Shown here piece after piece: positions 5,379-55,372 of a stretch of 64,000 nucleotides of DNA. The translations under genes were made by a program, and so were the position numbers. Source of the stretch: Cyanidioschyzon merolae. Taxonomy: Eukaryota. The first letter of the stretch is position 1. Each line of letters opens with the position of its first letter. The stretch lies in NCBI GenBank assembly GCA_000091205.1, contig AP006498.2. One strand, 5' to 3'. Below the pieces are notes generated by a model that was given only the letters and a program-made list of their open reading frames with translations, ran no database searches and had not been told where the DNA came from.

Positions 5379-5825
5379 ACTGCTCCTGTGTGCCGTCTAA
5401 ACGCCGAGGGCAAGCTCCACGCCAGGAGTCGCTGCAAAGAGCGCTGCCGGCACTATCAACCAACCAGGGCTTCGAGTCAGTGTGCACGCGCTTCCTTGTC
5501 CACAACGCTGATTGATAGCGATATACCTGCAAACGCGACGTGAACGCCAACCTACCAGGGCTTCGGGTCAGTGCGCACCCGCTTCCTTGTCCACAACGCT
5601 GATTATTAGCGATATACCCGCAAACACAACAACTGATGAAGCAGCGATCTCGCCGGCAAACGTGCACCCAACGCTACCAACTATGCTCGTCCAGGATGTA
5701 GTGTCTGTGCCGCCCAGTCCATGCTGATAGTTCAGTTACCGCTCCACGGAGTCGGTGGAGGATTGTCTAGCCCCCCTGCAAAGCATGCACTGCGGTAGCC
5801 GCGATGCCTGCCCGCATCACTCGAT

Positions 5826-5935
5826 ACGCGGTGTATGGAAGCGTTGGCTGGCTGGCTGCCTGGATGGCTGCCTGGATGGCTGCCTGCCTGCCTGCCTGGA
5901 TAGCTGCCTGCCTGCCTGGATGGATGGATTCGGGG
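5826..5935. repeat. GCCTG/GGATG-rich microsatellite-like tract
   Basis: Reads 'ggctggctgcctggatggctgcctggatggctgcctgcctgcctgcctggatagctgcctgcctgcctggatggatgg'. Short-period repeats are visible directly. Confidence 0.7.
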
Positions 5936-6034
5936 CGGCATCGGTGCGCTGCCCGTGACACCCTGCAATCGACGTGCGCCTAGCCCAGACTGGCCCCAGA
6001 CGCTGCAGCAGTTTTGAGCGAATAACCCTGCTGC

Positions 6035-7597
6035 ATGGGGGACGATAGCTCGGACAAGGGCCCAGACAAAGAGCCCAAATGGGATCAAGCAGGGCAAGGC
6101 TGGTCTCTCCCGAGACCCACGGGGTCATGCTCCGAACCAGGATGCGTTGAGTACGGATCCACTCCTGATTTAGGCGCAAACGAGCCTAGTGCCGCAGGCT
6201 CGACTTCACTTGCCGCGGCGGAAGATTGGAGCAACGTCGCTGGCGTTGACGATGATTTTGATAACGCTGACGACGACGACAACGACGACAACGTCGAGGA
6301 CCTGGAGTTTGTGCACCAAGGCGCGAGCGAGTTCGCTTCTGAGGGTGTCGATGTGGACGGGACGTCAACGCAGACGCGGTCGAAAGGTCGCCAGCGCCCG
6401 GCGAACCAGCGTTCCAGGATTAGTCGGCGTAGCAGACGCTACGACCCGCTTCCCCAGCAACCGGATGGTGTTGTGGTACGCCGAAGAAAGGAGCCTGCGA
6501 AAGTTGAGAACGCCACACAGGGAAACTTTGGTTTGTTCGCACACCAGGAAACTGCCGCAGGAGACAACACGCTGGAGATTGAGCCCGCACCCGAGGATGC
6601 TCCTTCCGAAGGTGTCCCTATCCGAGGCCAGGATCCAAACGAGCTGGCTCCATTCGATCACGCCGAAACGCTGGATTTAGAGCAAGGTGTCACCCATGAA
6701 CCAGTGCTTTTTAACGCAGCAGTACGTCCAAAGCGATGGACTTGGAAGCGTCTCTGGAGGCGGCTTTTTCGATGGCGGCGACCGCTGGACCCCACAACGA
6801 GCGGGAGCGCGCTCACGCCCCAGCCCTATGACGCGCTGCGCAGGGAGCCGGGGCCCTCAAACAACCCTGCGGATGTCGAGTTGGACCCAGAGGATGAAGA
6901 AGGTCCAGAAATGCTCAGCGCAGCCATTGGTGACTTTTTGTCGGCACAGTACAGCTGGGAAATCCACGCGCATCGACTGGTGTCGCAGCCGGATCAATCC
7001 TATGCCATTGCAGTGAATCGAGAAGCGCTGGAGCGCAAGGAGCAGCTCCGTACCGAAGAGCAGCGTCAAGCTGCAGAGCAATCTCGGCTGCGCATGGCAG
7101 CGATGCAGTTCCGTTCGCTCTTCATCAGGGACGCTTCGCATGACGAGGCCATGGCAACCGGTGATCCCGACGCTTTCGACTTGAGTGTTGCTGAGCTTGA
7201 AATGCATGAGAGACGCGTTCGCGCGTTTCGAATTCTGCTGCTCTTTGATGCGATCTTTTTTGTCTTGCTTAGCATTACTTGGCTTGATGCGCTGATTGCG
7301 CACGACGTCAGCAATCTGCAGAGCACTATAATTGACGGAGTCGTGTGTGGCACCAACATCGTCATTGACATTATAGGCCTTCGTGCCGTCAGCGTCCAGT
7401 CTGCCAGGTGGCTTGGCGTCTTCATCGCGCTCTACTGGATATCTCTGATCGGTACCATTATTGCGATTCCGCTACTGCCACTGATTCCGTTGCTGAGATT
7501 CCTTTTGCTGCCCATGGCTGCGGCCATCAAACAGTTCATCGAATTTCAGGAACGGCAACAACAGCAGCTTCAAAATCAAGCAATGATTTTCGTCTAG
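6035..7597 (+). CDS. hypothetical protein with an acidic N-terminal half and C-terminal transmembrane helices
   Basis: 520-aa ORF. Contains D/E/N-rich tracts ('DDDFDNADDDDNDDNVEDLEF'). The C-terminus has hydrophobic segments ('ILLLFDAIFFVLLSITWL', 'WLGVFIALYWISLIGTIIAIPLLPLIPLL'). No family recognised. Confidence 0.35.
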   Translation: MGDDSSDKGPDKEPKWDQAGQGWSLPRPTGSCSEPGCVEYGSTPDLGANEPSAAGSTSLAAAEDWSNVAGVDDDFDNADDDDNDDNVEDLEFVHQGASEFASEGVDVDGTSTQTRSKGRQRPANQRSRISRRSRRYDPLPQQPDGVVVRRRKEPAKVENATQGNFGLFAHQETAAGDNTLEIEPAPEDAPSEGVPIRGQDPNELAPFDHAETLDLEQGVTHEPVLFNAAVRPKRWTWKRLWRRLFRWRRPLDPTTSGSALTPQPYDALRREPGPSNNPADVELDPEDEEGPEMLSAAIGDFLSAQYSWEIHAHRLVSQPDQSYAIAVNREALERKEQLRTEEQRQAAEQSRLRMAAMQFRSLFIRDASHDEAMATGDPDAFDLSVAELEMHERRVRAFRILLLFDAIFFVLLSITWLDALIAHDVSNLQSTIIDGVVCGTNIVIDIIGLRAVSVQSARWLGVFIALYWISLIGTIIAIPLLPLIPLLRFLLLPMAAAIKQFIEFQERQQQQLQNQAMIFV

Positions 7598-16975: not shown

Positions 16976-17629
16976 TCAGTGGTACGCTTCTCTTGAGCTG
17001 ACGCTCCCTGCACCCACGTTTGGTGCCTCGAAGGCGGCATTCGGCGTCTCGGCGCTGGCCTCATGTTTCTGTTCGTTCATGATACCGAGCACCGTGCCCA
17101 TGGTCGCAACGCTCTGCTGCAGCGCGTTCAAAGTCGCTCGAAGTTCGGCGAGTTGCTCTTGCTGCTCGAGCCGTTGGCTGCTGATGGACTCCAGTTCGGC
17201 ACGTCGCTCGCAGATCTCCAACTCCAACTCGGAACAATTTGGTAGTCGCTCGATCTCGACACACAAAGCCCGCAGCTCTCGCTCGCTAGCTAACTGCGAC
17301 TCAGCAACGCTGAGCGCCTTCTTTTCCTCCGCGTATTGTTCCCGAAGTTGCTTCACTTGCGCCTCCAGTGTAGGCAGTGCTAGGCAACGAAGGTTGTCCT
17401 CGTCAGTGGCGAGCGCCTGCGCGGCTCTGGCGAAATGCTCGGCCGACTGCTCGAGCGCAGCCAGCGATCGAGCCAAAGCGTCCGGGGAGGTTTCCACTCC
17501 GCGTCCTGCTTGCGTGAGTACCAGCACTTGACCTGCTGACTGTAGGAACTCGTCGTAGCGCTGTTCAAGTCGTGCAGCGATTGCTGTTTCACAGTCACCG
17601 CTGTCGCTAACGGTGTACATTAGTGGCAT
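16976..17629 (-). CDS. hypothetical coiled-coil protein
   Basis: ORF rich in heptad-like 'LEQ...AEL...LRE' segments. The track start at 17698 lies inside the conserved Fanzor tail. The first in-frame ATGs are at 17629 and 17620, so the start is uncertain. No family recognised. Confidence 0.3.
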   Translation of the reverse strand: MPLMYTVSDSGDCETAIAARLEQRYDEFLQSAGQVLVLTQAGRGVETSPDALARSLAALEQSAEHFARAAQALATDEDNLRCLALPTLEAQVKQLREQYAEEKKALSVAESQLASERELRALCVEIERLPNCSELELEICERRAELESISSQRLEQQEQLAELRATLNALQQSVATMGTVLGIMNEQKHEASAETPNAAFEAPNVGAGSVSSREAYH

Positions 17630-17747
17630 GTGGCCCGCCCTAGACGAGAGGTCTCCAACTGACGTGCAGACGCGTCCCCGTCTTTTTCGACCGGCCACCC
17701 ACTACTGCTTCTAACTTTTTCTTATATAGTTCGACTTTAAGAGGTTG

Positions 17748-19716
17748 TCAAACAAAGTTCTCTCTTGTCAACTCTGGAGCTCTCGTCTCCAGCACCGCAC
17801 ATCTCCTGATATTGATGGCGGCATCGAAGTCACGATTCACGAATTCCATACGTTTCTTGCCATCGTTGGTTGTACTGACCAATGCGAGTAGTCCACGAAC
17901 TTTCGCCATCCTTTCCATTTGCTCCTCCGTAAGCGGTCCATACTTTATTATATCTTCAGGGCTCCTCTGGCACTTTTCCATCTCCACTCTCTGAAGTGTA
18001 CAACCCAGCTCGTGGTGTGTATACGATGTTCGAAACTCATCTACAGGTATCGTAACGAAACGCCGTGCACACTCCTTGTGCGCTCTCGTCGTTGGAGCTG
18101 GTGTACACCCTTTTTGGGTCTTCCAGCGCCCTGCTCCGTATGCTACGACGAGCCTCTGACTTTCATCCTCCTTCAGGGCGTTCAACTGATTGAAAAAGTT
18201 CGCGAACGCCCGCTGTTTCCCACAGTATAGATTCATACGCAGACGAGCCCACCGAGGCTTTGTATACTCCTCCCACAGCGCCTCCCAATGAGCAACGCGA
18301 ACTTTCATGAATTTCAGAAAAGCTTGAAAGTCCGCTCCTCGGCTCGTCACCTCGCTCATAGCTTCCAAGTGGTCCTTTATTCCTGCATTCCATGTCTTAA
18401 TTTTCTTCCTCGCATTCATGATTCCCGATTCTCGATAGTCTCTTGCTGTCGAGAACCTCAGAAGACGCATGTGTTTCTGACGCAAGTTACCGTCAGTACC
18501 GTCGTCCGCAAGCTTGGATACAGCGATGGATATGATATTTGTGTTTCCGGGGTCCGCGCCAACGACAAAGTCGTTTTCCTGCACTTTCTGCGTCGCAGCA
18601 TCCGCTTGTTTGTTTTCTTCATGTTTCGCCGAGCGCGAAGCCGAGGGCGGAACTGGACGATCTTTCCTCAACCGCAGATAGTGTACACACATGGGTATTC
18701 CATCGCTTTCAATCAACCCAGTGAATTCCTTTTTCTTGCTGACTTTGAGCCCTTTGAAATTGAAGATATTCTTCCAGTACGTCTCGCGGGTTTCGGCGGT
18801 GATCTCTGTGCTCCTTACATCGAACTCGGGACTGGTCTCAGTCATGATGCCGTAAAGGACGCCGGAGTCGATAGTCACAAAATGTGACTTGATGTTGCCC
18901 AACGGAACCACGTTGAAGCGCTCGCCCATTAGGAACGCCTTCCGTCTCTCCCATTCTTCATTTTTTTCCTCACTCAGCTTCATCTCCGCTTTGCGATCGA
19001 GCTCTCGGTCCAAAAACACAAAATACCGTAGGACGAGACGATCGTATCTTTCCTTATCTTTTTTCAACTCTGATATCTTGTCTGTCGGATTCGCCAGCCC
19101 CGAAACTGCACGGTGCTCTTGCATAACCGCACGGATTACAGAAGCTGCATTCGTGATCTCTTTTGACGCCTTCTTGTCGACGAATCCGATCCCATCTACA
19201 CGCCGGCGATTGTTCGTGATGCCATTGATAATCGCCCATATCCCTTTGGGAGAGATGCCCGGGATAGAGTGCAAATGCGGCGCGTATCATGAAACGTTCG
19301 AGGTTCGTTGTCAAACGATTCTCCAGATTCGTGAGTCACTTCATCGCCCCATAGTCGTAAATATCCCGGTCATCCCTGTACTGGGTACCCTCGAAGCGGA
19401 ATTCCGCGAAGTTTTCGTGGAGGGCATGCACCCGCTCATTTTCCATCCGCGCATCCTTTGTACCAAGCATCAGCTGACGAATAAACTTCTTATCGAAAAA
19501 CTCGTCCGGAATCTCGACCGTTTCCATGTGCGTCACGTCGCGATACATCTCCCGTACCAAATGCATCAGTCCTGACGACGCCTTTACAATACTCTTGGAG
19601 TACGAGTCGACACGGTTTCTGATAGCGTCTCGCAACTTTTCCCTGTAGGGATCCTTGATATGCTTAAGGACACCGGCTTTCACCACCATCTCGTCGTACA
19701 TTCGTCTTTCTTGCAT
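17748..19716 (-). pseudogene. Fanzor1-like TnpB-family RuvC nuclease, disrupted (~655 codons)
   Basis: The three track ORFs 19336..19716, 19054..19314 and 17748..19274 are pieces of one gene. Motifs: '[12 protein letters not shown]' (RuvC-I), 'CTPAPTTRAHKEC...HHELGCTLQRVEMEKC' (zinc finger) and 'KKRMEFVNRDFDAAINIRR' (RuvC-III). An in-frame TGA at 19333-19335 falls where copy B has Tyr. Near 19272 a 1-bp insertion ('tatcccggg' vs copy B 'tgcccggg') shifts the frame. Confidence 0.75.
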
Positions 19717-19733
19717 CGTTCGACGTAGAGCCT

Positions 19734-19743
19734 CCCCCCCCCC
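19734..19743. repeat. poly(C) tract (10 nt on + strand; poly(G) immediately 5' of the copy-A Fanzor start codon on the - strand)
   Basis: Reads 'cctccccccccccttt'. Confidence 0.8.
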
Positions 19744-20703
19744 TTTGGTCCTTCTTCTTTTCCTTTTCTTCTGGACTCGTCACTGTTTTTTGTTTTTTCT
19801 GGCAGCCGGCGACACTGGGCCTCCAGGATCGTGGACTTGCTTTTTCATCACTTTCCTTTTCTTGTTTGTTTTTGAAAAACAACGCTCTTTGATCCCTTCT
19901 GTTATACACAGCAAAAAATCAATCGAGCATTTTTCCTTGAGGTTTGAAACACAAATGAACTGAAAACTGTACTTTGCTACGACCTCAACGCAAACACAAC
20001 TTTTACAGCTGAACAAGACGCTTCTGATCGCGATTGCGTCTCCCTTCAACGGCGACGGGCGCGTCGTGTCTAATGCCTGCCAGATAAGGATGTGCGCGTA
20101 TCGGGCGCACTCTATAGAACAAAGAACAGATACTGACCATTAAATCGCCACGAGATAACGATTTCTTTCCCCTCTACGATAAACGTTGAGACGGGGAAAA
20201 CTGTCGGTACTTTCGAAAGTTTACCTTCTAGACGCAAGGTCCCGCGGATTGCACGAGTCTCCCAGGCTCGTGCTTCACGCTCCGCCACTGGCAGGTGCTT
20301 TCGTGACATCTGAGCAACTCGTCCGTAACGCACTCCACTCTGGGACTTGGAACGGGTAGCCGCCGTCTGGGCGTTGCCCATGATGCAGTGGACTCCTGGT
20401 ATATCGCGTTGCGCTGCCGCAGGCACTAGATCAATCTGCGCAGCTTGCAGACTCCTAGAACGACTATGAGCCACGACTCCGTTTCAGGTGAAGCGTTCCT
20501 CGGTCCGACGCCCTCAGAGGTATGGCAAAGCCGTTCAGTCTCCGTGATGCATCGGCATCAGCGATAGAACCGCAATTGCGGGTGCTCAAAGCAGGTAATC
20601 GGCGCTCGATAGAGCATAAGAATCGACCATTACATCCGAAAAGGTTTATGGGTCATGTAGCTTGAGGGTAAGTGCATCATGATGGATGCTTTCCCGAAAC
20701 CCA

Positions 20704-20728
20704 ACATCCATCCATCCATCCATCCATT
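20704..20728. repeat. (CATC)n microsatellite
   Basis: Reads 'catccatccatccatccatccat'. Confidence 0.85.
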
Positions 20729-21050
20729 CTGCAATCTAGGATCCATGGTCCACGTAAACGTTTTGTATAAAAAATTCTCATCAGCAGCAGCGACGGCGCT
20801 AGGCCCCAGCCGTCATCCTGGCGCCCGCTGAAGGCTCGCTGCGAAGCCTCGGCTGCATCGCAAGCCCAGGTGTCGTTCCGTTGTCAACCGAAAACACTTG
20901 TAGATCGAGTTGGTGCTGAACAACGTGGGCTCTGTGACTCCTCCCTAAACTCTTGCTCGCTTCTGATTGGGAAAAGGTTTGCAGCCTCAAACAGTGTGTG
21001 GAGAACACTAGAACTTAACCAACACCACACCGCCCACGACACAGTTACCC

Positions 21051-25453: not shown

Positions 25454-25662
25454 GACGCGCAGAACAACGCGGACTTGGAAGCGAAGTCGCTGATGCCCAC
25501 TGCACTACCCGTACGAGTCCAGGGGTCTAAGCTGTGACTGTCCGGCGTCCAGCACGAGCAGCGAAAATCGCGAAAGCGTTTTGGCTTGACGCTGGGCGCT
25601 GTGTCCAGTGTGACTGGATCCGCCAACGTTGACGACGCGTGCGCCGCACGTGGCATTCCTGG

Positions 25663-26130
25663 AGCGGGCGTATGCGAACCCTGAACCTACGGAAGCGAGT
25701 TGCTCTCAGAGCGGGCGTGTGCGAACCCTGAACCTACGGAGGCGAGTTGCTCTCAGAGCGGGCGTGTGCGAACCCTGAACCTACGGAGGCGAGTTGCTCT
25801 CAGAGCGGGCGTATGCGAACCCTGAACCTACGGAAGCGAGTTGCTCTCAGAGCGGGCGTATGCGAACCCTGAACCTACGGAGGCGAGTTGCTCTCAGAGC
25901 GGGCGTGTGCGAACCCTGAACCTACGGAGGCGAGTTGCTCTCAGAGCGGGCGTGTGCGAACCCTGAACCTACGGAGGCGAGTTGCTCTCAGAGCGGGCGT
26001 ATGCGAACCCTGAACCTACGGAAGCGAGTTGCTCTCAGAGCGGGCGTATGCGAACCCTGAACCTACGGAGGCGAGTTGCTCTCAGAGCGGGCGTATGCGA
26101 ACCCTGAACTTACGGAAGCGAGTTGCTCCC
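25663..26130. repeat. 47-bp minisatellite, ~10 tandem copies
   Basis: The unit 'gagcgggcgt(a/g)tgcgaaccctgaacctacgga(a/g)gcgagttgctctca' repeats head-to-tail with a/g variants at two positions. It lies ~200 bp upstream of the 25453 start of the lipase-like gene. Confidence 0.9.
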
Positions 26131-28261
26131 GGAACGAGCTTCGGATTCTGGAAAAGCGTTCGCAGTCTATGGAAGCGATGAAATCCTGTAGATGCGTTGA
26201 GATTGTATGGAGGCTCCCGCACCTGTAGTGGCGTTTGCTCAGTATTCAAGCTTCCGCTGAAGATGCGCTTGACCATTTACCGAAGCATCGATGCTCTTCG
26301 GTACGTGACTGCTCGAATCCGAATTGATTTCCGCTACACAGACAAATTTGAAGGTGTCGGGTTTCGCTCCTTCTCCTAATCGTATTTTCGACGGTATTCC
26401 CGGTACCGAGCCTGACGGTTCACAGACTCGATCCTGTGGCGATCTGGAGGCCCCGAAAGCGTCTAGCAGAATAGTAGTTGCGCGGAGCACTTGGTGGCCT
26501 ATGATTATCGATCTAGTCTGCAGCAAGTATGTGTTTTTAAATGCTCGGCGTTTTTTTGGCGTCTGCGACCCCAAAACGTTCTCTTGTATTTAATGAAGAA
26601 CAAGCTCGACGGCCGAGTCTGCGCACACGGATACGGAACACGTGCTGAACGTCGATGCACTGGCAACGCGCGAAGCACGCTGCACTTTCAGAACAGCAGC
26701 GTGTGCGGCTCGCTCGATTTCATGCATCCGCAGCAAGTCACCAGCAAAGCGACGAGCTGCGCGACTCTCGTATTCTCGCTAACAGGTCGCTGGCGACTTG
26801 CTCAGGTTTCCATACAGCCGAGGCACCATGGGTATATGCTCCAAACGACCCCGCTCGCTGCTTGTTGAAGTTCACGCGAAACGTTTGGGCCGTAAATGTG
26901 CGGACCCGCCCCAAGGATCTGGAGAAACGTTCCACGCGATGCGTCGCTGCTTGCTCGCAAGACTCAAACCCGTTTTCAATCGATGCTCTGTGCGAAGAAC
27001 AGAGCGCCATCCCGGTTCGGCGGCTGGGCCTCAGATCGAGCACGGGTGTACTACCTCTTATGGGGCGGGCATCTTTATCCTATTCGTCTTTTTATGATAG
27101 GCTCGGACACGTGTCCGCGACACGCATATCGGGCTCGCCTGCCCTGAGCGCCCCCCGGACACGTAGCGCTCAGATGCGTGCGTGTCTGAGTACCTAGACA
27201 TGAATGTACAATTAGGACGATGCAGGGTGAATTCTCCACAACGCCTCTTTACCTCTCGTGTGATCCCAGGAGCGAAGCGCATGCATCCCAGCAATATGCA
27301 TCCTGCATATAGCGCAAAGACAATGAAATGATGTCCAGTTCAGTTGCTTCGGGATACTAATCGGAGCGAACGGACCTGGACTTGTGGTTGTGCAGGTTGT
27401 CGTCTTCTAGACCGCACGTGGTTCTGGGCCCGAGTCCAATCGGCATTCCAGGAGGACGCTAGCAGCTGGCATGCCATGAGCATGAGCGAGCGACGGAAGC
27501 GGGTAATGGACGAGTCGATCGCCGGCTACAGGCCCAGCAAACCAGCGCTCGGTTTCGCAGCTCGTTCTTTCACGATATCCTCTTAGCGGTGGCTGCAAAG
27601 CGCGTTGGATAAGTACAGTCCAGGCACTGGAGCGAGCTTTAACGGAACTGCGAACAATATCCATTCCAGACGCTATTCAGCTTGCGTACGTACAGCGTTG
27701 CCATAGGAAGCAACCAGGCCCCTTGAAAAGAAAGGGTTGTTCTGGGCTCCCGTCCCGCTGATGAAGCGTACCTCCATCTATCAAACGCTCATCTCCAGAA
27801 CGTCGCAAGTTCGGCGACAAGACAATCAAGTGTGGGATCAGACGGGCCTCAGCGGCTGGCGTCATGTTGGCGTCGGAGTAGTTCTCAAAGGGCGTGTGTG
27901 TGTGTGTGCCGCCGCCCCAGCTTTTTCTTATGGCTCGCACTCGTTGCGTCCCCGAACCAGGTTCCCCGGAAGCGGGGGTACGGCAGGTACGTCAGGACGA
28001 TGAACAGAGCTCGTCCGCAGTCGATTCCATATACGCACTGCTTCTGCACCAGACAGGAACTCGTTGCTGACAACTGGCCTCAGCCGCACGAAGCGAGCCG
28101 TGCTGAGCGATGATTCGGGGGCGTCCAGAGATCCAGCGCAGTCGAGTCGTTCTGGGGCCCGAGGTGCACTGAACTCAATACCCGCTGTTACTCGCTCGCA
28201 TTCCTATTCATCAAAGTTCGAATCGGCCGACATATGCGTGCCATTGGGTCACTGAACGTCC

Positions 28262-43595: not shown

Positions 43596-43925
43596 CAGAC
43601 AATCAGAATGTCCGTCTCGTTCTATAAACTACTGGTATGAACGTCTCTGCGAGTCGCTTGTCGTCAGGATGTCCGTCTCTTTCCATAAAATACAGGTATG
43701 GCAAGTTTCTACTTGCCGCTTGTCGTCAGAATGTCCGTCTCTTTCCATAAAATACAGGTATGGCAAGTTTCTACTTGCCGCTTGTCGTCAGAATGTCCGT
43801 CTCTTTCCATAAAATACAGGTATGGCAAGTTTCTACTTGCCGCTTGTCGTCAGAATGTCCGTCTCTTTCCATAAAATACAGGTATGGCAAGTTTCTACTT
43901 GCCGCTTGTCGTCAGAATGTCCGTT
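43596..43925. repeat. 62-bp tandem repeat, ~5 copies
   Basis: The unit is 'cgcttgtcgtcagaatgtccgtctctttccataaaatacaggtatggcaagtttctacttgc'. The first copy is degenerate and four are near-perfect. Track ORFs 43516/43760/43822 are artefacts of the repeat. Confidence 0.9.
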
Positions 43926-44421
43926 TATTCAAGCAAATTTCATATATGCATCATTTCGAGGAGTCGGTGAAATCGTCCGTTGTTCGCCGCGCACGCATCC
44001 TGGCGTTCGGGATGCGCGCGGCGTTCGCGCAATCTTCGGACGGCTCATGTTATGATCGAGTTTCCCCGCTGATGTTCCGGAACAAGTAGTCAGATGTTTC
44101 CCATCCCTACCACTGGACCACGTCAAATCAAATGTACTCGTTTATACAGCATAATTTTGATCAAGTTCCATGACATGTGAAACGCAAACTGAGCCGCGTA
44201 CGCTTCTTGGTTCCGAGGCCTCTGGTATCTATCGGTCCGTGCTGAGCAGCTCACAAGCACATGAAGACCAGTTTCGGTTCGTCGACGCTGTACCGCGTCA
44301 TGCGGCGGGGCGCGATAGCGCTTCTAGTTCAGCCCTGCAATGAGGTCGGCCTAGCACTTCACGGTTCTTGGGCGTTCTTGGGCATGATTTAAATATTTAC
44401 GCGACAAATCTAGACGACTCG

Positions 44422-45690
44422 CTAGGCCTGCGCGTTTGCCTGCTTGTCTAGCGGTTTCCGGGCGACAATAAAAAACGAGGGTGTAAAAATTCCCAGCTTT
44501 CCGGCCGCGATAAGGTCTCTAGCTCCATCCATGAGCGTTCGACTCATTTTCGCGCTGCCTCTAGGCGCGATGCGCACCGTCTCCAGTGCGGAGACCAGCG
44601 CGTGCGTCATATAGTGCCCCAAACGCGTGTGGCGAAAGCCGCTCCAATGGAAAGCGTTTTCACCACTCAGTGGCGTGTACCAGGGCTTGATGCTGAGCGT
44701 CGTGGCATCGTAGGCGTCCTCGATTTGAAACCCAACTTGTCGCATAGCGTTGACGATTTCTTCTGTTTTCATCAAATCCGGAATGCCGTTCCCGATCTCG
44801 ATACCAAACTTGAGCCGCTGGTGTTCCGAAGCAGCGGCATCGAAGCGATCCGTAAGCGCCCATTCGTAACCGACAAAACGAGCGCCTGGCTTCAGGACCC
44901 GGAAGACTTCACCGTAGGTTTTCAGCTTGTCGGGACTGTGACAGGTGGCTTCGATCTGATACGCACCGTCTTTTGAATTTTCTTCAAAGGGAAGGTTATT
45001 AAAGTCGGCTTTGATTATCGTGCACTGATCCATGAGACCATCGTCCTCGATATACCGAAGGCCACGAAGAATCTGGTAGTCACAGATATTCACGCCGACA
45101 ATCTGGCAGCGTGCGAAGCGAGCAATATTCCGAAGCGGGCCTCCGACTCCACAGCCAAGGTCAATCACCGCAGCCCCAGGGTCCAGCTTGAGCCGTAGAG
45201 CAATCGTGTACTCGTATCGGCGCGTGGCTTCCCGAAACGTCTCATCTGGCCCGTAGACTGCAAAGTGGAAGCTTGGACCCCAACCCCACTCGTAAAAGTC
45301 TGTTGCAATATCGTACATGCCGTTGCTTAACTCTTTATAGCGGCGTTTGCGCAGCGCGATATCCTCTGCGGAGCCAGAGCCGCGCGCAAACAAGGTCAGG
45401 TACTCTCTAAGCTCCTCCTCAGTAGATTTTCCAGTCGTTTTCGTGTGCCCTCTGCGACCTACAACTGGCAGGAAACGGAACAAGAACTCCCAAAAGTTCG
45501 CCGCAGCGTCCGCGCTCTTCGCCGTAGCCAGCTGCCAAAGGCCGCCGTCCTTTCGAATGGGCACCTTTAGCAACGTGAACCGGCGGTTTCTCGCGCTTTG
45601 GCGAGCACCTGTCCCTTTCCTAATGCTCTCGCGTGCTCCAGGTGTACTGTCCTTTGTTCTCTTGGTCATTTTCGTACGTAGCGCTACCAA
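44422..45690 (-). CDS. SMT1: sterol 24-C-methyltransferase (SMT1/ERG6 family)
   Basis: Contains 'YDIATDFYEWGWGPSFHFAVYGPDETFREATRRYEYTIA' (compare ERG6 'YEYGWGSSFHF'). The SAM motif I is 'VIDLGCGVGGPLRNIARFARCQIVGVNICDYQI' (compare 'VLDVGCGVGGPAREIARF...GLNNNDYQI'). Confidence 0.88.
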   Translation of the reverse strand: MVALRTKMTKRTKDSTPGARESIRKGTGARQSARNRRFTLLKVPIRKDGGLWQLATAKSADAAANFWEFLFRFLPVVGRRGHTKTTGKSTEEELREYLTLFARGSGSAEDIALRKRRYKELSNGMYDIATDFYEWGWGPSFHFAVYGPDETFREATRRYEYTIALRLKLDPGAAVIDLGCGVGGPLRNIARFARCQIVGVNICDYQILRGLRYIEDDGLMDQCTIIKADFNNLPFEENSKDGAYQIEATCHSPDKLKTYGEVFRVLKPGARFVGYEWALTDRFDAAASEHQRLKFGIEIGNGIPDLMKTEEIVNAMRQVGFQIEDAYDATTLSIKPWYTPLSGENAFHWSGFRHTRLGHYMTHALVSALETVRIAPRGSAKMSRTLMDGARDLIAAGKLGIFTPSFFIVARKPLDKQANAQA

Positions 45691-45789: not shown

Positions 45790-46310
45790 GGCGTACAAGC
45801 AACGTCCCAAGTTGATCCATCCATCTATGTATTTATACTCAGCAAAACGGATATCTTTCTAGGACCATAGAGTGTGTATAGAAACCTACTGACAGACGCC
45901 CCGTAGCATCAATGGACCCATGGGCTGCAATCAGCTTAAGTTTATACCTGCACACTTCGTGCATCAAAGGCTGCGTCGCAAAATTCACTCGTGTCTGCTC
46001 CGCGAGTCTCGTCTTCAGCACCGCTTTCCGTCTGACATTGATGGCGGTGTAAAAGTCCCAGTTCACGAATTCCATGCGTTTATCGCCTCTGGTGAAACGG
46101 ACGTATGCAAGGATGCCTCGAAATCATACCCTCCGTGCCACTAGTCTCGTGGATCTCTCCTCTTCTTCCTCACCTACTCTTCTTCGCACGACGGTCGGCG
46201 AGAAAAGGATCTTTTTCGTTATTTTTCCGGGAGCCGGCGACACCGGGCCTCCAGTATCCTCGATTTCCATGTACATAACTTTTCCTTGATTCTTTTATTT
46301 CTTCAAATAA
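45790..46310 (-). mobile_element. internally deleted Fanzor-family element (5' conserved block fused to the RuvC-III coding remnant plus 3' tail)
   Basis: ORF 45839..46075(-) reads '...RGILAYVRFTRGDKRMEFVNWDFYTAINVRR', matching the copy-A C-terminus 'RGLLALVSTTNDGKKRMEFVNRDFDAAINIRR'. The DNA below it is homologous to the copy A/B tail ('ggtccattgatgctacggggcgtctgtcagtagg' vs 'ggtccaaaaaaggggaggcgtctgcacgtcagttgg'). Positions 46141-46310 match the copy-A 5' block ('gggagccggcgacaccgggcctccagtatcc' vs 'ggcagccggcgacactgggcctccaggatcg'). Confidence 0.6.
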
Positions 46311-46389
46311 ATGCAGTTCTTTGTGCCCGTAGATAAGGAACTTCCCGGAGGGAGTGGGACTTGCGGAAGAGAGCCGAAACGTGTCCCGG

Positions 46390-46880
46390 TGTGTCATTGT
46401 GTGCCGAACGCTTTCGTGATTCGCCCAGTGGAGTGATCGTCACGTTTCACGATACAAAACGCTCCTTCGATGTGGTTGAGTCAAGTCGCGTACTGAGGAG
46501 TGAAAGGCGGCTCTACTCCGATAGAATCGGCAATAGCTCGAACACATGGGTAATGGTGAAATGCAACGTCGTCGAATGGACGGACGTCACCAGACTTCAG
46601 CGAGAAGTCTTCAATGATTCGACGAACTGTGTTCTGTTGTATATGCCTTCCCCAGGAGCGAAACGGAGACCTCCAAATGAGTCCACATCAGCAAGAACAG
46701 ATGATGTCCTCGTTCTGTTGGGGATCGATCGGACATACGACGATCCGCCCCTCCGCGAATACCCATGTACCATCCGACAGTTTCATCCGAATCAAGTCTC
46801 ATTGACTCAAAAAACAAACCAAAGTCCCTGTGCTTCACATCGATCGTGGCGTTCCAGGAACGCTGTAGGTGCAAATTCTG
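46390..46880 (-). pseudogene. possible Tc1/mariner-like DDE transposase relic
   Basis: Minus-strand frames give 'RLDSDETVGWYM...' and '...DVRPFDDVAFHHYPCVRAIADSIGVEPPFTPQYAT*'. This is reminiscent of the Tc1 DNA(x)H ... PPYSPDLNP C-terminal block. It is interrupted by stops. The resemblance is weak. Confidence 0.25.
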
Positions 46881-47612
46881 TGGAAGATGGCGGTGATTGA
46901 ACTAGGACTCTTTTTTGCGATTAGATTCCAGTGATCTCAGGATCCGCACCATCAAGCTGTTGAGAATCAGAGATGCCGGTTGCGGCTACTATGGTCGCTT
47001 TTGTTGCTCGTAAGTAGTTCATGTTGAAACCATTGACCGAAAGCAGTATCTGATATTACCATTTTTTGGCGCGGAGCGCAGATACTTGTTTCACTCAGTA
47101 TTCCTCAAGCATTTGAGTACTGTGTCAAGACTCACCTGAAGGAAGAATGTTGTCCTTCTTGCACGATTCAGTAAAGAATATATCCTGCAAACAAGTCGTC
47201 GACGATGCATACGGCATGTAGCATCATGATGTCGATCTACTGCTACACACTGAGAAGGAGCATTCGATGACACAGACACCAGAGATGGAACGTAACTGAG
47301 ATGAAAGACGATAACACCGTATTCGATACAGAACTATAACATAAGGGTCAATGTGGACACATTTTCTAAGTGACCTACATGAACTCTGGGGCTGTCGCCT
47401 AACTTTCATAACCGCAAACTCTTCGCGTGGTTTCCAGTGCTCGCTGCTGCGTCTCCACCACACTGCCCTGTAACCTAGTAGTTGCAGTGGAGGCTGCCGG
47501 TGTGGAGAAGCAAACGGGCTGTATACCGTGAACGTGACAGCGAGCGGCGAGTCTTCCTAGAACGTTCCTGTTCGCTGGCCGGGAGTGTAAACCTGCACCG
47601 GGCCTCGCCATC

Positions 47613-49028
47613 ATGTGGTGGAGCGCACTTTCGCGAGCAGCACAGCAGCGAAGCTGTTCGCTGTGGACGCCACTTGCGTGGCATTGGCGTCAGCGCTTCG
47701 ATAAAAAATTGGACCTGAGTTCGCGCTCTGCGAGCACAGACGTCGGGGCCATCATCGGCAACAACGAGAGTATACAACGCAAGCTTGCTGTCGATCCGAC
47801 TCGTCCGCGCGTTCGGAAACGCAAACCAACAACGCCGTCAAACCGTGCTACCGCTTTGATCGACTTTTCAGTGCTTTACCGAGGTCCTCCAGTCAAGCGA
47901 CTTACCGGGGGACTGCGGCGTTCCACCGGGGGGCGGAATAACCAAGGCCGCACGACTGTCTGGCACCGGGGCGGTGGACACCGACGCCTCTACCGGATTC
48001 TCGACTTGCATCGACGTCAGTACGCAGGATTGCCGGGCTGTGTTGAACGTGTAGAGTATGATCCAAACCGCAGTGGCCTCATTGCTCTACTGAGATATAC
48101 GCTGCCCGAGAAGGACGCGTCATCGGATACGACGACGACGACGTCGTCGTCATCAACGACGGTGTTTAGCGATCTGTATCGAAACCTTGCCAACGCACTA
48201 CAAGGAGCGACGACACCGCTGCCAACGTCGCCTTCTCCGGAGCCGAGACTTGTGTATCTTCCTTACGAGGTAGCGAAATCCGGGGCAGGCACGTCAGTAT
48301 CGGAGACTGGTACCAGTGCCCCGGCGACGATCACGGCAAATTCGTCAACGAATGCCTCGACGGCTTTGCCCAGCAGTGACGCCCCTGTGGAGCCATCGCG
48401 ACGCCCTGAACCAACAGTTCACATGGAAACCATTCGATCGAATGTGCGAGTTCTGAAAAGGCGCTCCGGATCCAGCCCCAAAACCCATCTATCGTACATT
48501 CTATGCCCGCAGGGTATTCGAATCGGGGACTTGCTGCTTTCTCGCACAGATGGCCCCGTAGAACCGAAACCGGGGAATGCGTGCCCCCTGCGTTACTTGC
48601 CCATCGGTACCACGGTACACAATATCGAAATGCGACCCCGCTCTGGAGGGCAACTCTGCCGCGCCGCCGGCACCAGTGCTCAGTTGCTCGAAAAGGACGA
48701 AAAGCGCAAACGAGCTTTATTAAGATTGCAGAGTCGTGAGGTGCGCTACATCCACTTGGACTGTATGGCCACAGTAGGCGCGGTGAGTAATCCAGAGCAT
48801 CGCAACCAATCGATTGGCAAAGCAGGTCGAAGTCGCTGGCTAGGCCGTCGACCAGTGACGCGCGGTGTCGCCATGAATCCGGTGGATCACCCGCACGGCG
48901 GCGGCGAGGGCAAGACCAGTGGCGGGCGACCGTCAGTGACCCCGTGGGGAAAACCAACCAAAGGGTATCGGACCGTGCGAAAGCCACGCGGTGCGAATTT
49001 CATCGTACGAAGGCGTTTCAAAGAGTGA
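47613..49028 (+). CDS. RPL2: bacterial-type ribosomal protein uL2 (organellar, nucleus-encoded) with an N-terminal presequence and a ~110-aa low-complexity insertion
   Basis: 'GGRNNQGRTTVWHRGGGHRRLYRILDLHRRQ...VERVEYDPNRSGLIALLRY' matches bacterial L2 '[29 protein letters not shown]...VERLEYDPNRSANIALVLY'. 'VTRGVAMNPVDHPHGGGEGKTSGGRPSVTPWGKPTKGYRTVRKPRGANFIVRRR' matches the L2 C-terminus. An S/T-rich insertion lies between 'LLRY' and 'HLSYILCPQGIRIGDLL'. The N-terminal 'MWWSALSRAAQQRSCSLW...' is targeting-peptide-like. Confidence 0.8.
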   Translation: MWWSALSRAAQQRSCSLWTPLAWHWRQRFDKKLDLSSRSASTDVGAIIGNNESIQRKLAVDPTRPRVRKRKPTTPSNRATALIDFSVLYRGPPVKRLTGGLRRSTGGRNNQGRTTVWHRGGGHRRLYRILDLHRRQYAGLPGCVERVEYDPNRSGLIALLRYTLPEKDASSDTTTTTSSSSTTVFSDLYRNLANALQGATTPLPTSPSPEPRLVYLPYEVAKSGAGTSVSETGTSAPATITANSSTNASTALPSSDAPVEPSRRPEPTVHMETIRSNVRVLKRRSGSSPKTHLSYILCPQGIRIGDLLLSRTDGPVEPKPGNACPLRYLPIGTTVHNIEMRPRSGGQLCRAAGTSAQLLEKDEKRKRALLRLQSREVRYIHLDCMATVGAVSNPEHRNQSIGKAGRSRWLGRRPVTRGVAMNPVDHPHGGGEGKTSGGRPSVTPWGKPTKGYRTVRKPRGANFIVRRRFKE

Positions 49029-50101: not shown

Positions 50102-50133
<32 letters not shown>

Positions 50134-50255
50134 GCAGCGGCTGGAATGCGCACCTAATCGGAGAACGCTGGCCCAAGTAAACGTTTTGTCAATGAAAAAA
50201 AAGCTGGAATGCGCACCTAATCGGAGAACGCTGGCCCAAGTAAACGTTTTGTCAA
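50096..50255. repeat. (GCGT)n microsatellite followed by a ~62-bp tandem duplication (2.3 copies)
   Basis: 'acgtgcgtgcgtgcgtgcgtgcgtgcgtgcgtgcgg' is followed by 'gctggaatgcgcacctaatcggagaacgctggcccaagtaaacgttttgtcaatgaaaaaaaa' twice plus a partial third copy. It lies 150-300 bp upstream of the ACBP start. Confidence 0.85.
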
Positions 50256-51014
50256 TGAAAAAAAAAGCTGGAATGCGCAGGCGCTCTGCATTCGCCAAAT
50301 GCGATCGTGCGGTGCCTGCTTCCGCTGCTGCTTCTCGCGCATTCGGGCCCTGGGCAGTGCCTCGTACATTCGTCGATACTGTACCACACGAGTCGATCCG
50401 GCTGCATCAGAGAGCAGCAGCTTTAGCGGGATACGAGTTTTGGTCGAAGGTAGGTCGTTTAGATTCAAGGAGCTCATGATGTGGAGTTTTGAAGTGAATA
50501 GCGCCCGCGACATCACCCGAGTCGATGCAATCTGCTTTCGCTGATGCGGGAGACGGAGTATTTCCGATCACAAAACGTTTACGTTGACCATGTATCCCAG
50601 ATTGCGGAGTGGTTACTGGTTTTCGGGAAAGCGTTCATTATAACGCAACCTACCTTCAAGTTCTATGGCCTGTTCTCAGATATTCTGGTCGTTTTGTTCG
50701 TTCTATTATGCGCCGAGTTCCTGTCTTACTGCACCCGCCGTGGCGCTTATGCCGTTGAGGCAGATGCTTCACGGAGCTGAATAGCATTGCCATATCACTA
50801 GCGGCTTCGGTTCGAGGCATGATTCATTCGACATGGAGTCGGGCTATATGATTATCCTGGGAGCCTGCAAGCTGCGCAAACAGGCCGACAGTCTGCGACA
50901 GCGTGAAGCGATAAGCTGGGAGTCCATTGCGACCAGGGCGACGCCCAGATGTAGCGTTCCAGTCCCAGTTCCAGAATGAACTGCATTGCGGGCGAGTTGC
51001 TTGGATCTCCCTAC

Positions 51015-53195
51015 AGCTTTAGCTACTGAGGGGTGAATGAAGCACGAGCCTAGGGGACATTCTTGGACATATCAAGGATCCGTACGAGCAGGAATTTCGA
51101 GAGGCCATCAGAAACCGTTTCGCGTCCCACTCCATGAGTATTAAAAAGGCTTCTTCAGAACTAATGCATATGGTGAAGGAGATTTATCGCGACATGACTG
51201 ACATCATAACAGTGGAGGTTCCGGAAGAATTTTGGAACAGGAACTTTATTCGTCACCTGATGCCTGGCACATGGGAAACGTCAAAGAGAGATGAACTCGT
51301 GCGTGCGTTCCACGAGGGTCGCGCCGAATTCCGCTTCAAGGGTACTCGATACAGGGGCGATAGGGATATTTACGACTATGGGGCTATGAAGTATCTCACG
51401 AACCTGAAGAACCATTTGACAACCAACCTCGAACGTTTCATAATAAGAGCCGTATTTGCGCTCTGCCCGGGCATCTCTCGCAAAGGGATATGGGCGATTA
51501 TCAATGACATCACGAACGATCGCAAGCATGAAGATGGGGTCGAATTCGTCGACAAGAAGGAGTCAAACGAGAGCACGAATGAAGCTTCTGTGATCCGTGC
51601 GGTTGTACAAGAGCACCGTGCAGTCGTGGGGCTGGCGAATCCGCCAGAAAAGATATCAGAGTTGAAAAAAGATAAGGAAAGATACGATCGCCTCGTCCTG
51701 CGCTATTTCCTGTTTTTGGACCGAGAACTCGAACGCAAGGCGGAGATGAAACTGAGTGAGGAAAGCAATGAAGAGTGGGAGAGACAGAAGGCTTTCCTAG
51801 TGGGTAAGCGCTTCAATGGCGTTCTGTTGTGCAACATAAAGTCACATTTCGTGAGTATCGACTCCGGAGTCCTCTAAGGCATCATGAAGGAGATCTGTCC
51901 GGAGTTCGATGTCAGCAGGGAGGAATTCACCGGCGAAACCCGTCCGACGTACTGGAAGAGTATCTTCGATTTCAAACGTCTCAAAGTGAGCAGGCAAAAG
52001 TTGTTCACTGGGATAATCGAAACCGATGGAGTAGCCATGTCTGTAAACTATCGGCTGTTGAAGAAAGATCGTCCAGTTCCGCCCTCGGCTTCGCCAGTGA
52101 CGAAGGATGAAGAAAAGGAGGAGGCCGGTCCTGCGACACAGGATGTGCAGGATAACGACCTTGTCGTTGGCGCGGCGAAGGATGAAGATGAGGAGGAGGC
52201 GGGTCCTGCGACGCACAAAGTGCAAGATAACGACTTTGCCGTTGGCGCGGACCCCGGAAACACAAATATCATCACCATGGCAGTACCCAAGCGTGTGGAA
52301 GATGGCGCTGACGGCAACTTACGTCAGAAAGACATGCGTTTGTTGAGATTCTCGAGAGCGAGACACTATCGAGAATCGGGAATCATGAATGCGAGGAAGA
52401 AAATCGAGACTTGGAATGCTGGAATAAAGGACCACTTGGAAGCTATGAGCGAGGTGACGAGCCGAGGAGCGGGCTTTCAAGCTTTCCGGAAATTTATGAA
52501 AGTTCGCGTTGCTCACTGGGATGCGCTGTGGGAAGAATATACAAAGCCTCGGTGGGCTCGTCTGCGTATGAATCTATACTGTGGGAAGCAGCGGGCGTTC
52601 GCGAACTTTTTCAATCAGTTGAGCGCCCTGAAGGAGGATGAAAGTCAGAGGCTCGTCGTAGCATACGGAGCAGGGCGCTGGAAGACCCAAAAAGGGTGTA
52701 CGCCAGCTCCAACTACAAGAACGTACAAGGAGTGTGCACGGCGTTTCGTTACGATACCTGTAGATGAGTTTCGAACATCGTATACACACCACGAGCTGGG
52801 TTGTACACTTCAGAGAGTGGAGATGGAAAAGTGCCAGAGGAGCCCTGAGGAAATCGCAAAGTACGCACCGCTGACGGAGAAGCAAATGGAAAGGATGGCG
52901 AAAGGTCGACGACTACTTGCATTAGTAAGTACAACCAATGATAGCAAGAAACGTATGGAGTTCGTGAACCGAAACTTTAACGCCGCTATCAATATAAGGA
53001 GATGTGTGGCGCTGTAGAAAAGACCCTCCAGAGTTGAGAGAATTTCGTGGGACAACCTCTCAAAGTGGAACTATATGAGAAAAAGTTGAGAGAAGTAGTA
53101 GGTGGCCGGTCCAAAAAAGGGGAGGCGTCTGCACGTCAGTTGGCGACTTCGTGTCTAGGGCGCATTCGCCGCCACTACTGTACACCGCTGGCGAC
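51015..53195 (+). mobile_element. Fanzor/TnpB-like element copy B (5'-altered decayed ORF plus conserved 3' non-coding tail)
   Basis: Homologous to copy A at the protein level and along the 3' tail through ~53195. Copy B lacks the 5' 'ccggcgacac' block seen in copy A and the deleted copy. Confidence 0.7.
51037..53017 (+). pseudogene. Fanzor1-like TnpB-family RuvC nuclease, disrupted (copy B)
   Basis: An in-frame TAA at 51878-51880 falls where copy A has Tyr (TAC). A ~14-nt indel near the N-terminus sits between ATG 51037 and 'catatcaaggatcc'. A 75-bp in-frame tandem duplication (52103-52252) gives '[25 protein letters not shown]|[25 protein letters not shown]'. RuvC-III reads 'NRNFNAAINIRR' (Asp to Asn) and the stop comes earlier ('CVAL*'). 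Confidence 0.75.
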
Positions 53196-53326
53196 TGCTT
53201 TCGACTTTTGAAAGGCGTTCGCTGTCGCTGCCATGTGCTTCCGCAAAACCGCCTCCTCTGAACGGCCTCGACATCCGCTTTCGCAATAAAAGGCTCCGCG
53301 GGGTTTCCAATTGCTAAAACACGAGC

Positions 53327-54376: not shown

Positions 54377-54519
54377 CGCTGGACTTGGATACGAAACCCG
54401 GTACCTGATTCAAATCGAAGTTTGAACGGGTAGCTGTGTATCTCGAAAATCGAGGCTGTATATATACAAGAACGAAAGAGTGCAACATAGCGAGCTGTTG
54501 TTTGTGGCACTTTACATAT

Positions 54520-55250
54520 TGTGAGTAAACCAGAAAATGTTCCACGGATACTGGGGGTAGATTCATACCCACCAATAGAAACATCCGAGCATTTATGGAC
54601 TGGCCGCCTGCTTTCGGCATCAGCTTCTCCTTATAAAAGCATCAGAGGCTGCATCATGATTTTAGATCGCCTCAGGTCTTCAAGTCTGTTCTTCAGTGCC
54701 GCAAATCGTCTGATATCTATGCTCGCGTTACAGTCTCGTTTCACAAACTCTAGGCGTTTATTGCCACTGGTTGAACTCATGATTGCAAGCATTGCTAGCA
54801 CTGGTGCCGTCAACCACTCTACAGTTTCGTCTGTCGCTCATCTTCTCCTTTTCCCATTTCTTCGTTATTTGCTCTTCTTCGCTCCATGTTCGGCGAGAAG
54901 AGCTATTTGCCCGACGACACAATGATGAGCCTGTCGTGGCACTGAGGTCGCGAGTTCTAGCAATCCTTGCATATCTGCGTTCAACCAGAGGCAATAAACG
55001 CATGAATTCAGTGAACCGAGGCGTCGACGCCAGCATCAATATCAGACGAGTTGCAGTGCTAAAGACGAGCCCCCAGGAGCTGACGCGAGCCAACGCTGTC
55101 CGGCAACCTCTGATACTCCAGGTATTCCGGGAGAAACGGAAGCCGATAGCATTCGACCGCTCCATAAATGCCACGAGACGTCTCCAAGTGGATATACCAT
55201 GCATCCCCATGATTGGGGAATGTTTTTCGTTTTATCGTTATTGCCCGCGG
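54520..55250. repeat. ~730-bp near-palindrome (inverted repeat) built from two Fanzor 3' ends, arms ~54520-54850 (-) and ~54910-55250 (+), centred ~54885
   Basis: The reverse complement of the left arm aligns with the right arm at ~80% identity. Each arm encodes a RuvC-III remnant: 'NKRLEFVKRDCNASIDIRRFAAL' on the minus strand and 'NKRMNSVNRGVDASINIRRVAVLKTSPQELTRAN' on the plus strand. Each continues into sequence homologous to the copy A/B non-coding tail ('ggcaacctctgatactccagg' vs 'ggacaacctctcaaagtggaac'). The centre is itself palindromic: 'gctcttcttcgctccatgttcggcgagaagagc'. Confidence 0.75.
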
Positions 55251-55372
55251 CGGCTTCAGAGGCGTTGTCGCTCCGCAGGGTTTCCAGCCAAATAGCTTCA
55301 ACGCACTACGCTGGCACGTTTTCGGCACTACCGCCACCAGCTTGTCTGTGTGTTGGTGTATTTATCTGATCC

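Follow-up and report, generated by a model that had tools for sequence, protein, structure and literature searches.

Cyanidioschyzon merolae carries CMe-1A, a 3169-bp Fanzor1 element present in ~150 copies (Bao & Jurka 2013, PMC3627910). The 5' 635 bp of CMe-1A correspond to a separate element, TE-N2_CMe; CMe-1A lacks terminal inverted repeats, and Bao & Jurka did not assign it to a class (PMC3627910). The same paper describes PUl-1 and PGv-1, Mariner elements that bear Fanzor1, with PUl-1 being 3.6 kb long and having terminal inverted repeats and TA duplications. Here we analyse 64,000 nt of C. merolae contig AP006498.2 (the whole stretch is referred to below as the window), and in particular positions 45838-47310, which very probably are one dead copy of a Tc1/IS630-type transposon, with a transposase gene followed by Fanzor1, that was deleted internally before it spread. 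It is known already that Fanzor1 can sit in a Tc1/mariner-type transposon, and the remark, in an earlier sequence-only reading of this DNA, that Fanzor1 genes ride in such elements turns out to explain the locus, which is itself an ordinary intergenic fossil between two housekeeping genes. The new point, a modest one, is a physical link between the C. merolae Fanzor1 family and a DD34E transposase, together with the spread of forms from which Fanzor had been deleted. We found no paper describing a transposase-Fanzor1 linkage in the Cyanidiophyceae in the literature that we searched.

The upstream part of the fossil, which lies on the minus strand (Table 1), is the pseudogene of a DD34E IS630/Tc1-type transposase. 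A possible Tc1/mariner relic had been flagged at 46390-46880; the identification holds, but the stretch is really ~800 nt long, about twice the length flagged. A profile search with the minus-strand frames of 46397-46687 matched Pfam DDE_3 with E=8e-5, though with 23 bits against a gathering score of 28.6. When the 301-aa transposase of an apparently intact element from a different organism (L037, described below) was compared with the window by tblastn, it aligned to three segments in collinear order, each in a different frame (E=5e-5, 2e-10 and 4e-13): residues 7-47 align with 47204 to 47082, residues 104-207 with 46920 to 46606, and residues 197-276 with 46639 to 46400. The first segment is a putative N-terminal helix-turn-helix (HTH) region, for which the E-value of 5e-5 refers to a 2-kb database and for which L037 itself has weak matches to HTH_Tnp_Tc3_2, HTH_23 and HTH_28; the catalytic core runs from 46920 to 46400. 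The catalytic residues read N (VNET; formerly D), D (FDDVAFHH) and E (NHIEGAF), with a D-to-E spacing of 34 residues in both the relic and L037, as counted from the alignment. At least four in-frame stops and at least two frameshifts disable the gene. A word-indexed homologue search with the relic returned only the same locus in a sister strain, and an index-free HMMER search of 1.8 billion representatives gave twelve further matches, most of them short open reading frame (ORF) fragments of decayed copies. All ten matches that were retrieved are such short fragments, and four of the ten (P0122, P0123, P0125 and P0130) pass the DDE_3 gathering score, with 33-41 bits.

Downstream of the transposase lie two pieces of Fanzor1, which we placed by aligning the window to the published CMe-1A consensus (supplementary file 2 of PMC3627910). 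Consensus positions 867-1026 are joined to 2792-3096, with ~1.77 kb of the Fanzor1 ORF absent at the junction, which bears out the proposal that this is an internally deleted Fanzor1. The N-terminal fragment (N-fragment) is 83% identical to the consensus over 96 nt (BLAST), with the equivalent of the ATG at 46270; the listed ORF 46124..46276 begins two codons upstream of this position and reads MYMEIEDTGGPVSPAPGK. The similarity between this 5' block and the region of a full-length copy elsewhere in the window (copy A) is real: 46211-46300 and 19783-19872 are 73% identical over 90 nt, a second alignment gives 78% over 83 nt, and the 64 kb contain precisely two occurrences of the 23-nt core, AGCCGGCGACACYGGGCCTCCAG, against 0 expected from shuffles. 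The block had been taken to lie just upstream of the copy-A start codon, but it is coding sequence and neither an element end nor a promoter. The consensus ORF has its ATG at 906 and begins MEKEVEDPGGPVSPAAGKK, and the core block lies inside this N-terminal stretch, at codons ~8-16 (PGGPVSPAA) of CMe-1A Fanzor1. Likewise, copy A starts at 19848 (MKKQVHDPGGPVSPAA..., followed by a stop) and not at 19716, which corresponds to an internal residue of the consensus protein, downstream of a premature stop. In the collected sequences, all seven distinct occurrences of the core block fall at this same position of the Fanzor N-terminus.

The C-terminal fragment (C-fragment) is 71% identical to the CMe-1A consensus and, at the protein level, 48% identical to CMe-1 residues 643-730 (tblastn, E=2e-13). 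As had been noticed, the minus strand carries the C-terminal remnant RGILAYVRFTRGDKRMEFVNWDFYTAINVRR (ORF 45839..46075), which matches the copy-A 3' end with 76% identity over 110 nt. The two fragments share a reading frame, interrupted by one in-frame stop. What is left of the protein is the first ~40 and the last ~105 codons only: RuvC-I (DPGNTN) and RuvC-II have been deleted, the RuvC-III/RD motif is mutated to NWDFYTAINV, and the TnpB-like arrangement of D...[TS][TS]..zinc finger...RD (RuvC I-III) is absent from the remnant. The CMe-1A 5' region, consensus 1-866, with the true left end of that element, is also missing from the fossil, contrary to the suggestion that both element ends had been kept.

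By nucleotide homology to consensus 867-1026 and 2792-3096 the Fanzor parts of the fossil belong to the CMe-1A family. We label its parent Fanzor because Bao & Jurka placed CMe-1 in Fanzor1 and because a profile of the CMe-1 family matches the RuvC-II/III region of the CRe-1 Fanzor1 (hhalign, E=1.8e-4 over 140 columns), pairing VVAYGAGR, DEFRTSYT and NRDFNAAINI with VVVGWGSW, DEYKTSKT and NRDVSAANVI, respectively. Pfam-A gave no family for copy A, for a second CMe-1A copy in the window (copy B) or for seven homologues, the precomputed PF26935 assignment of the homologues being a domain of unknown function only (DUF8286). Sequence searches of the PDB, with copy A and with a 13-sequence profile, returned nothing meaningful, and an AlphaFold2 model from a 16-sequence alignment was too poor for a fold search (predicted local distance difference test score (pLDDT) 42.6, predicted template modelling score (pTM) 0.24).

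The Fanzor remnant had been described as merely lying beside the transposase relic. Instead, the two form one collinear unit that recurs elsewhere. A metagenome scan seeded by a four-sequence alignment of transposase fragments collected 80 loci, and within a single metagenome (Ga0078972) the transposase relic is borne by at least 17 distinct contigs. The fossil is collinear with L010, L011, L015 and L085 across window positions 47273 to 45997, with 67-72% identity; L010, L011 and L015/16 follow the window from 47273 to 46153 and then from 46127 to 45997 in one collinear run (68-72%), in unrelated flanks. The order in the unit is transposase, a 76-nt spacer, the Fanzor leader with the N-fragment, the junction and the C-fragment. 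The junction is collinear in the copy at 46 kb, in a copy at 54.7 kb of the window and in L010, L011 and L015; in L028, L046/54 and L083, BLAST boundaries place the end of the N-fragment at consensus 968-970 and the start of the C-fragment at 2833-2913. Further deleted copies (L056-58, L074/78) are free of transposase. The same junction is thus found at several independent loci with unrelated flanks, as in an amplified deletion derivative. Since the copies are collinear, have the same junction and lie in unrelated flanks, the Fanzor deletion appears to be ancestral to the subfamily that spread, that is, a family trait that probably predates the spread and did not arise at this locus. The copies diverge from one another by ~28-35%, and identity to other loci is 65-72% overall.

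Downstream of the transposase, the collected copies fall into four classes: (a) an N-fragment (~868-970) with a C-fragment (~2833-3090), in the window copy and, besides it, at five or more distinct loci; (b) a C-fragment alone, from consensus ~2737-2850; (c) the 635-bp TE-N2 module joined directly, with no Fanzor sequence in one class of copies; and (d) a full-length degenerate Fanzor, in L085. Every composite copy, and L085 as well, begins its CMe-1A homology at consensus ~868. L085, at 3872-6923 of Ga0080006_1188598, has the transposase followed by degenerate Fanzor1 (consensus 869-3009, 76%), is collinear with window 47186 to 46212, and is the undeleted form of the composite element. TE-N2_CMe is repeatedly joined to the relic (L015/L042 5929-6562, L069 5889-6522, L011 7214-7455; also L060-L067 and L074-L082), either inverted just past the Fanzor C-fragment or straight after the transposase, and this genome's repeats resemble a mosaic built from three modules.

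An apparently intact relative of the composite element is found in a different organism. L037 (Ga0209923_1001289, 1-4090) is a 4.1-kb contig with a 3.45-kb element whose transposase scores 97 bits on DDE_3 and is followed by an intact Fanzor1-like ORF of 702 aa, 42% identical to CMe-1. Its terminal inverted repeats are imperfect, 28 nt long (62-89 and 3488-3515) and 79% complementary, with TA outermost on each arm; in this single case a duplicated target site cannot be told from the end of the repeat itself. L050, L039 and L041, from a brine metagenome, are similar: both L037 and L050 have a transposase and then a Fanzor1-like ORF, 41-42% identical to CMe-1 over residues ~17-702, L039 and L041 have partial matches of 39-41%, and L084 and L089 are weaker at 27-30%. 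We propose that L037 and its relatives may be intact Fanzor1 systems whose right end is defined. Because transposase and Fanzor1 are linked from consensus ~868, with L085 as a full-length relic and L037 as an intact relative, our data suggest a Tc1/IS630-type origin for CMe-1A, which was unclassified by Bao & Jurka (PMC3627910).

The boundaries of the fossil are limits of homology in multi-copy alignments. The 5' terminal motif reads CGTCTTTCATCTCAGTTACGTTCC in the window, with the family consensus AGTCTTTCAACTCAATTTTGTTTCAC; homology among at least 15 distinct copies begins here, and the flanks upstream of it are unrelated. At the other end, the sequence beyond consensus ~3096 follows the composite type instead of that of CMe-1A: the 3' tail, in which the stop codon of the mini-ORF formed across the junction lies (45839-45841), ends in the window with ...CCGTTTTGCTGAG, and across 17 aligned tails the conservation stops at ...GTGAAACGTTTTCNGTTTCACTGA. 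A palindromic core, AAACGTTT, is seen both at the 5' terminus of CMe-1A and TE-N2 (ACAAAACGTTTAC; consensus 8-18) and in the consensus of the composite-family 3' end (GTGAAACGTTTTC; window ~45838-45860), and the CMe-1A 3' terminus, TTTGAAAGGCG, is similar to the composite 5' terminus (AGTCTTTCAAC) in reverse complement. These shared motifs may be traces of swapped terminal repeats.

Several observations weigh against reading the fossil as a dead Tc1/IS630-type transposon. Terminal inverted repeats and TA target duplications are not demonstrable in the ~17 Cyanidioschyzon-type copies examined: the consensus sequences of the 5' end (AGTCTTTCAAC...) and of the 3' end (...GTTTCACTGA) form no clear inverted repeats, and the 3' end has only a short GTGAAAC/GTTTCAC hairpin. 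TA is not enriched before the 5' terminus, where ~10 copies read AT, CA, AA, CC, CT, TC, TG and so on; since the copies are old, this absence is weak evidence. Inverted repeats around the relic inside the window are limited to chance-level pairs of 13-19 nt. That the DD34E transposase moved the element is therefore inferred. In addition, the window relic taken alone falls below the Pfam DDE_3 threshold, and this kind of genome yielded no intact transposase of its family. The N-fragment of the window copy is nearer to the CMe-1A consensus (83%) than to other composite copies, which may reflect gene conversion. Lastly, divergence has saturated the spacer DNA of related taxa that lack the element, such that its absence there cannot be dated precisely.

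We propose that the ancestor was a cut-and-paste transposon of the IS630/Tc1/mariner type with the gene order transposase, then Fanzor1. An in-frame deletion of ~1.77 kb at purine-rich microhomology would have removed Fanzor1 codons ~41-629 before the element lineage spread, while the beginning of the ORF, its final ~105 codons and the 3' tail stayed in place. With the transposase still present, the shortened element could have transposed and inserted at several loci; that it spread is indicated by the collinear copies, which share the junction and have unrelated flanks. One copy would then have inserted into a bidirectional promoter region of ~470 nt between the genes for a ribosomal protein L2-family protein and sterol 24-C-methyltransferase (SMT), leaving 302 and 168 nt of spacer, and would subsequently have decayed by point mutations and frameshifts.

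The genome around the locus is compact and nearly intron-free, and the fossil sits in a 1944-nt spacer between SMT and the L2-family gene, which are transcribed divergently. SMT had been thought to start at 45690, which is a TTG that merely extends the ORF; the ATG at 45669 gives a 415-aa product whose exact sequence is called on 16 metagenome contigs, and the closest named relative is that of Cyanidiococcus yangmingshanensis (79% identity). The fossil 3' end (~45838) is 168 nt from this ATG, and its 5' end is 302 nt from the L2 ATG (47613). Without the 1473-nt fossil the spacer would be ~470 nt, compared with 342-400 nt in the syntenic spacers of L019. The structure and the 1944-nt spacer are shared by a sister strain (L007) with 98.8% identity, which is too close to inform on constraint. 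By contrast, DNA and protein searches found no match to the element in the L2-SMT spacers of L017, L018 (C. yangmingshanensis) and L019, which keep the gene order ACBP-L2-SMT and have SMT identities of 87%, 79% and 76%, respectively. L019 has a ribosomal protein L44 gene (5209-5658) in the L2-SMT interval, at the place taken by the fossil in the window; searches of the window, L017 and L018 gave no homologue of L44.

A wider proposal, that CMe-1A arose from this DD34E Tc1/IS630-like transposon and was moved by it, and that the shortened forms persisted as guide-RNA or right-end carriers using Fanzor1 in trans, seems very unlikely to us; if true, such carriers would parallel, in a eukaryote, the protein-less guide-RNA satellites of TnpB. 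TnpB and Fanzor systems encode their guide RNA at the element's 3' end, and the Fanzor 3' module could have been retained on this account as a guide (omega) RNA or cis element, with full-length CMe-1A Fanzor1 serving the shortened elements in trans. Every deletion class with any Fanzor sequence does retain the last 250-430 nt, and the 3' 281 nt of the CMe-1A consensus fold somewhat better than shuffled versions (z=-2.29; 2 of 200 shuffles as good). The window remnant, considered for a structured RNA, by contrast has no excess folding stability (z=-0.27), and an Rfam search matched no family. The copies, at 28-35% divergence, have no obvious conserved non-coding core beyond short motifs, mobile deletion derivatives must retain the 3' end anyway, and one class lacks Fanzor sequence altogether. 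We therefore consider retention as a guide-RNA carrier to be very improbable.

Hardly any weight falls on co-option, whereby the fossil would supply promoter or 5'-untranslated sequence to SMT (or L2), as the sequence-only reading had raised, or would encode a domesticated mini-protein. The short distances to both start codons are compatible with such a role, the mini-ORF is in frame over the junction, and several paralogous C-fragments are stop-free. The mini-ORF in the window, however, has a stop and a mutated RuvC-III; the ratio of non-synonymous to synonymous substitutions (dN/dS) in deleted-Fanzor C-fragments is ~0.67-0.75, close to neutral, versus 0.37-0.49 in full-length copies. Given this ratio and the stops in many copies, we rejected a selected mini-protein. 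The element is absent from three related taxa with the same gene pair, and the spacer lengths left on either side are normal for this compact genome. Between the sister strains, 46901-47612, which comprises the N-terminal region of the transposase and the spacer beside L2, differs at 15 of 712 nt (2.1%), the rest of the fossil at 0.6-0.8% and flanking coding sequence at 0.2-0.3%. The lower rate in the fossil could be taken as a sign of constraint, but the comparison is one of 8 versus 15 differences only. The fossil is probably neutral, with no present function.

The data contradict the reading that two independent events put a locally deleted CMe-1A copy next to an unrelated Tc1/mariner relic. 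In its favour, CMe-1A is abundant (C. merolae has ~150 copies, PMC3627910, and the window holds two more), and nested or adjacent transposon insertions are common. Against it, the order transposase, spacer, N-fragment, junction and C-fragment recurs collinearly at independent loci, the CMe-1A 5' 866 nt are missing, with homology beginning at ~868 in L085 and all composite copies, and the flanks of the other loci and their 28-35% divergence counter the idea that assembly chimeras of one locus produced the recurrence.

Repeats in the window match CMe-1A at 85-89%. Copy A carries stops and a frameshift near 19275. In copy B an in-frame stop lies at 51875-51877, and 52101-52250 is a tandem duplication of 75 nt, which recurs in L020 and L096. 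Some 300-430 nt upstream of copy B, 50140-50265 consists of two exact 63-nt tandem units, each with GTAAACGTTTTGTCA (the CMe-1A/TE-N2 5' terminus in reverse complement), preceded by a (GTGC)n run at ~50108-50135. Two stretches, 3364-3503 and 3783-3848, resemble the TE-N2_CMe part of CMe-1A (consensus 36-176 and 471-536). At 54516-55234 there is a head-to-head pair of further deleted-Fanzor remnants, which the earlier reading did not list, with 3' ends facing outward; they have the junction in common with the 46-kb copy and no transposase relic nearby. The plus-strand (third) remnant has an ORF (54783..55295, 170 aa) that is open throughout, and it ends ~139 nt before the ATG (55373) of a gene for a 2386-aa Sec7-domain protein. 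Tandem arrays are found at 25568-26225 (47-nt unit, ~14 copies) and, directly downstream of SMT, at 43643-43952 (62-nt unit, ~5 copies).

Table 1. Coordinates of the fossil, its parts and other features of the 64,000-nt window.
Feature	Position	Strand	Basis
Whole fossil, ~1473 nt: transposase pseudogene, then internally deleted Fanzor1	45838..47310	-	Collinear paralogous copies
Family 5' terminal motif	47283..47310	-	Homology among at least 15 distinct copies begins here
DD34E DDE_3 transposase pseudogene	46400..47204	-	Covers residues 7-276 of the 301-aa L037 transposase (tblastn)
Spacer, transposase stop codon (46394-46396) to Fanzor leader	46324..46399	-	Collinear in L009, L010, L011, L015, L085
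Fanzor1 5' fragment: 39 nt of leader and first ~40 codons	46146..46323	-	Local alignment, CMe-1A consensus 867-1026
Core block, CTGGAGGCCCGGTGTCGCCGGCT on the element strand	46232..46254	-	CMe-1A consensus 928-950; encodes PGGPVSPA
Deletion junction, purine-rich	46146..46172	-	Aligns to consensus ~1000-1026 and ~2792-2815
Fanzor1 C-terminal fragment	45884..46172	-	CMe-1A consensus 2792-3096
Family-specific 3' tail	45838..45883	-	Alignment of 17 tails
Sterol 24-C-methyltransferase (SMT) gene	44422..45669	-	Pfam Sterol_MT_C and Methyltransf_11; ATG 45669
Ribosomal protein L2-family gene	47613..49028	+	Pfam Ribosomal_L2_N/C on syntenic called genes
Copy A, full-length degenerate CMe-1A	17599..20766	-	Consensus 6-3151, 85% identity
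Copy B, CMe-1A without consensus 493-1080	50565..53217	+	CMe-1A consensus alignment
Second deleted-Fanzor remnant, 5'-truncated, without transposase	54516..54908	-	Alignment with 46-kb remnant unbroken across junction; tblastn
Third deleted-Fanzor remnant, head to head with second	54872..55234	+	Sequence alignment; tblastn

For the locus itself these findings mean very little. Their wider interest is that forms without most or all of Fanzor1, but with the transposase, spread to several loci, which fits the view of Fanzor/TnpB as a passenger that is dispensable for transposition.

Compared with CMe-1A, the fossil has homologous Fanzor parts, but where CMe-1A has an 866-nt 5' region with no transposase the fossil has a DD34E transposase instead; the fossil also has a different 3' tail after consensus ~3096 and has lost ~1.77 kb of the ORF. 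In its arrangement it is like PUl-1 and PGv-1, with the transposase first and Fanzor1 second in the same orientation, and L037 (3.45 kb, with imperfect inverted repeats and TA outermost) is comparable to PUl-1 (3.6 kb). The match between the PUl-1 transposase and the window relic is marginal (tblastn, E=0.18), pointing to a different lineage of the superfamily, and the Cyanidioschyzon-type copies, unlike PUl-1, are all decayed. Internally deleted derivatives that resemble transposable elements of the miniature inverted-repeat kind (MITEs) likewise arise by internal deletion at short microhomology followed by amplification of the short form. Unlike in those derivatives, it is the passenger Fanzor1 that was lost here and the transposase that was retained, suggesting that the shortened element was not a non-autonomous derivative, as first proposed, but was probably still autonomous while it spread.

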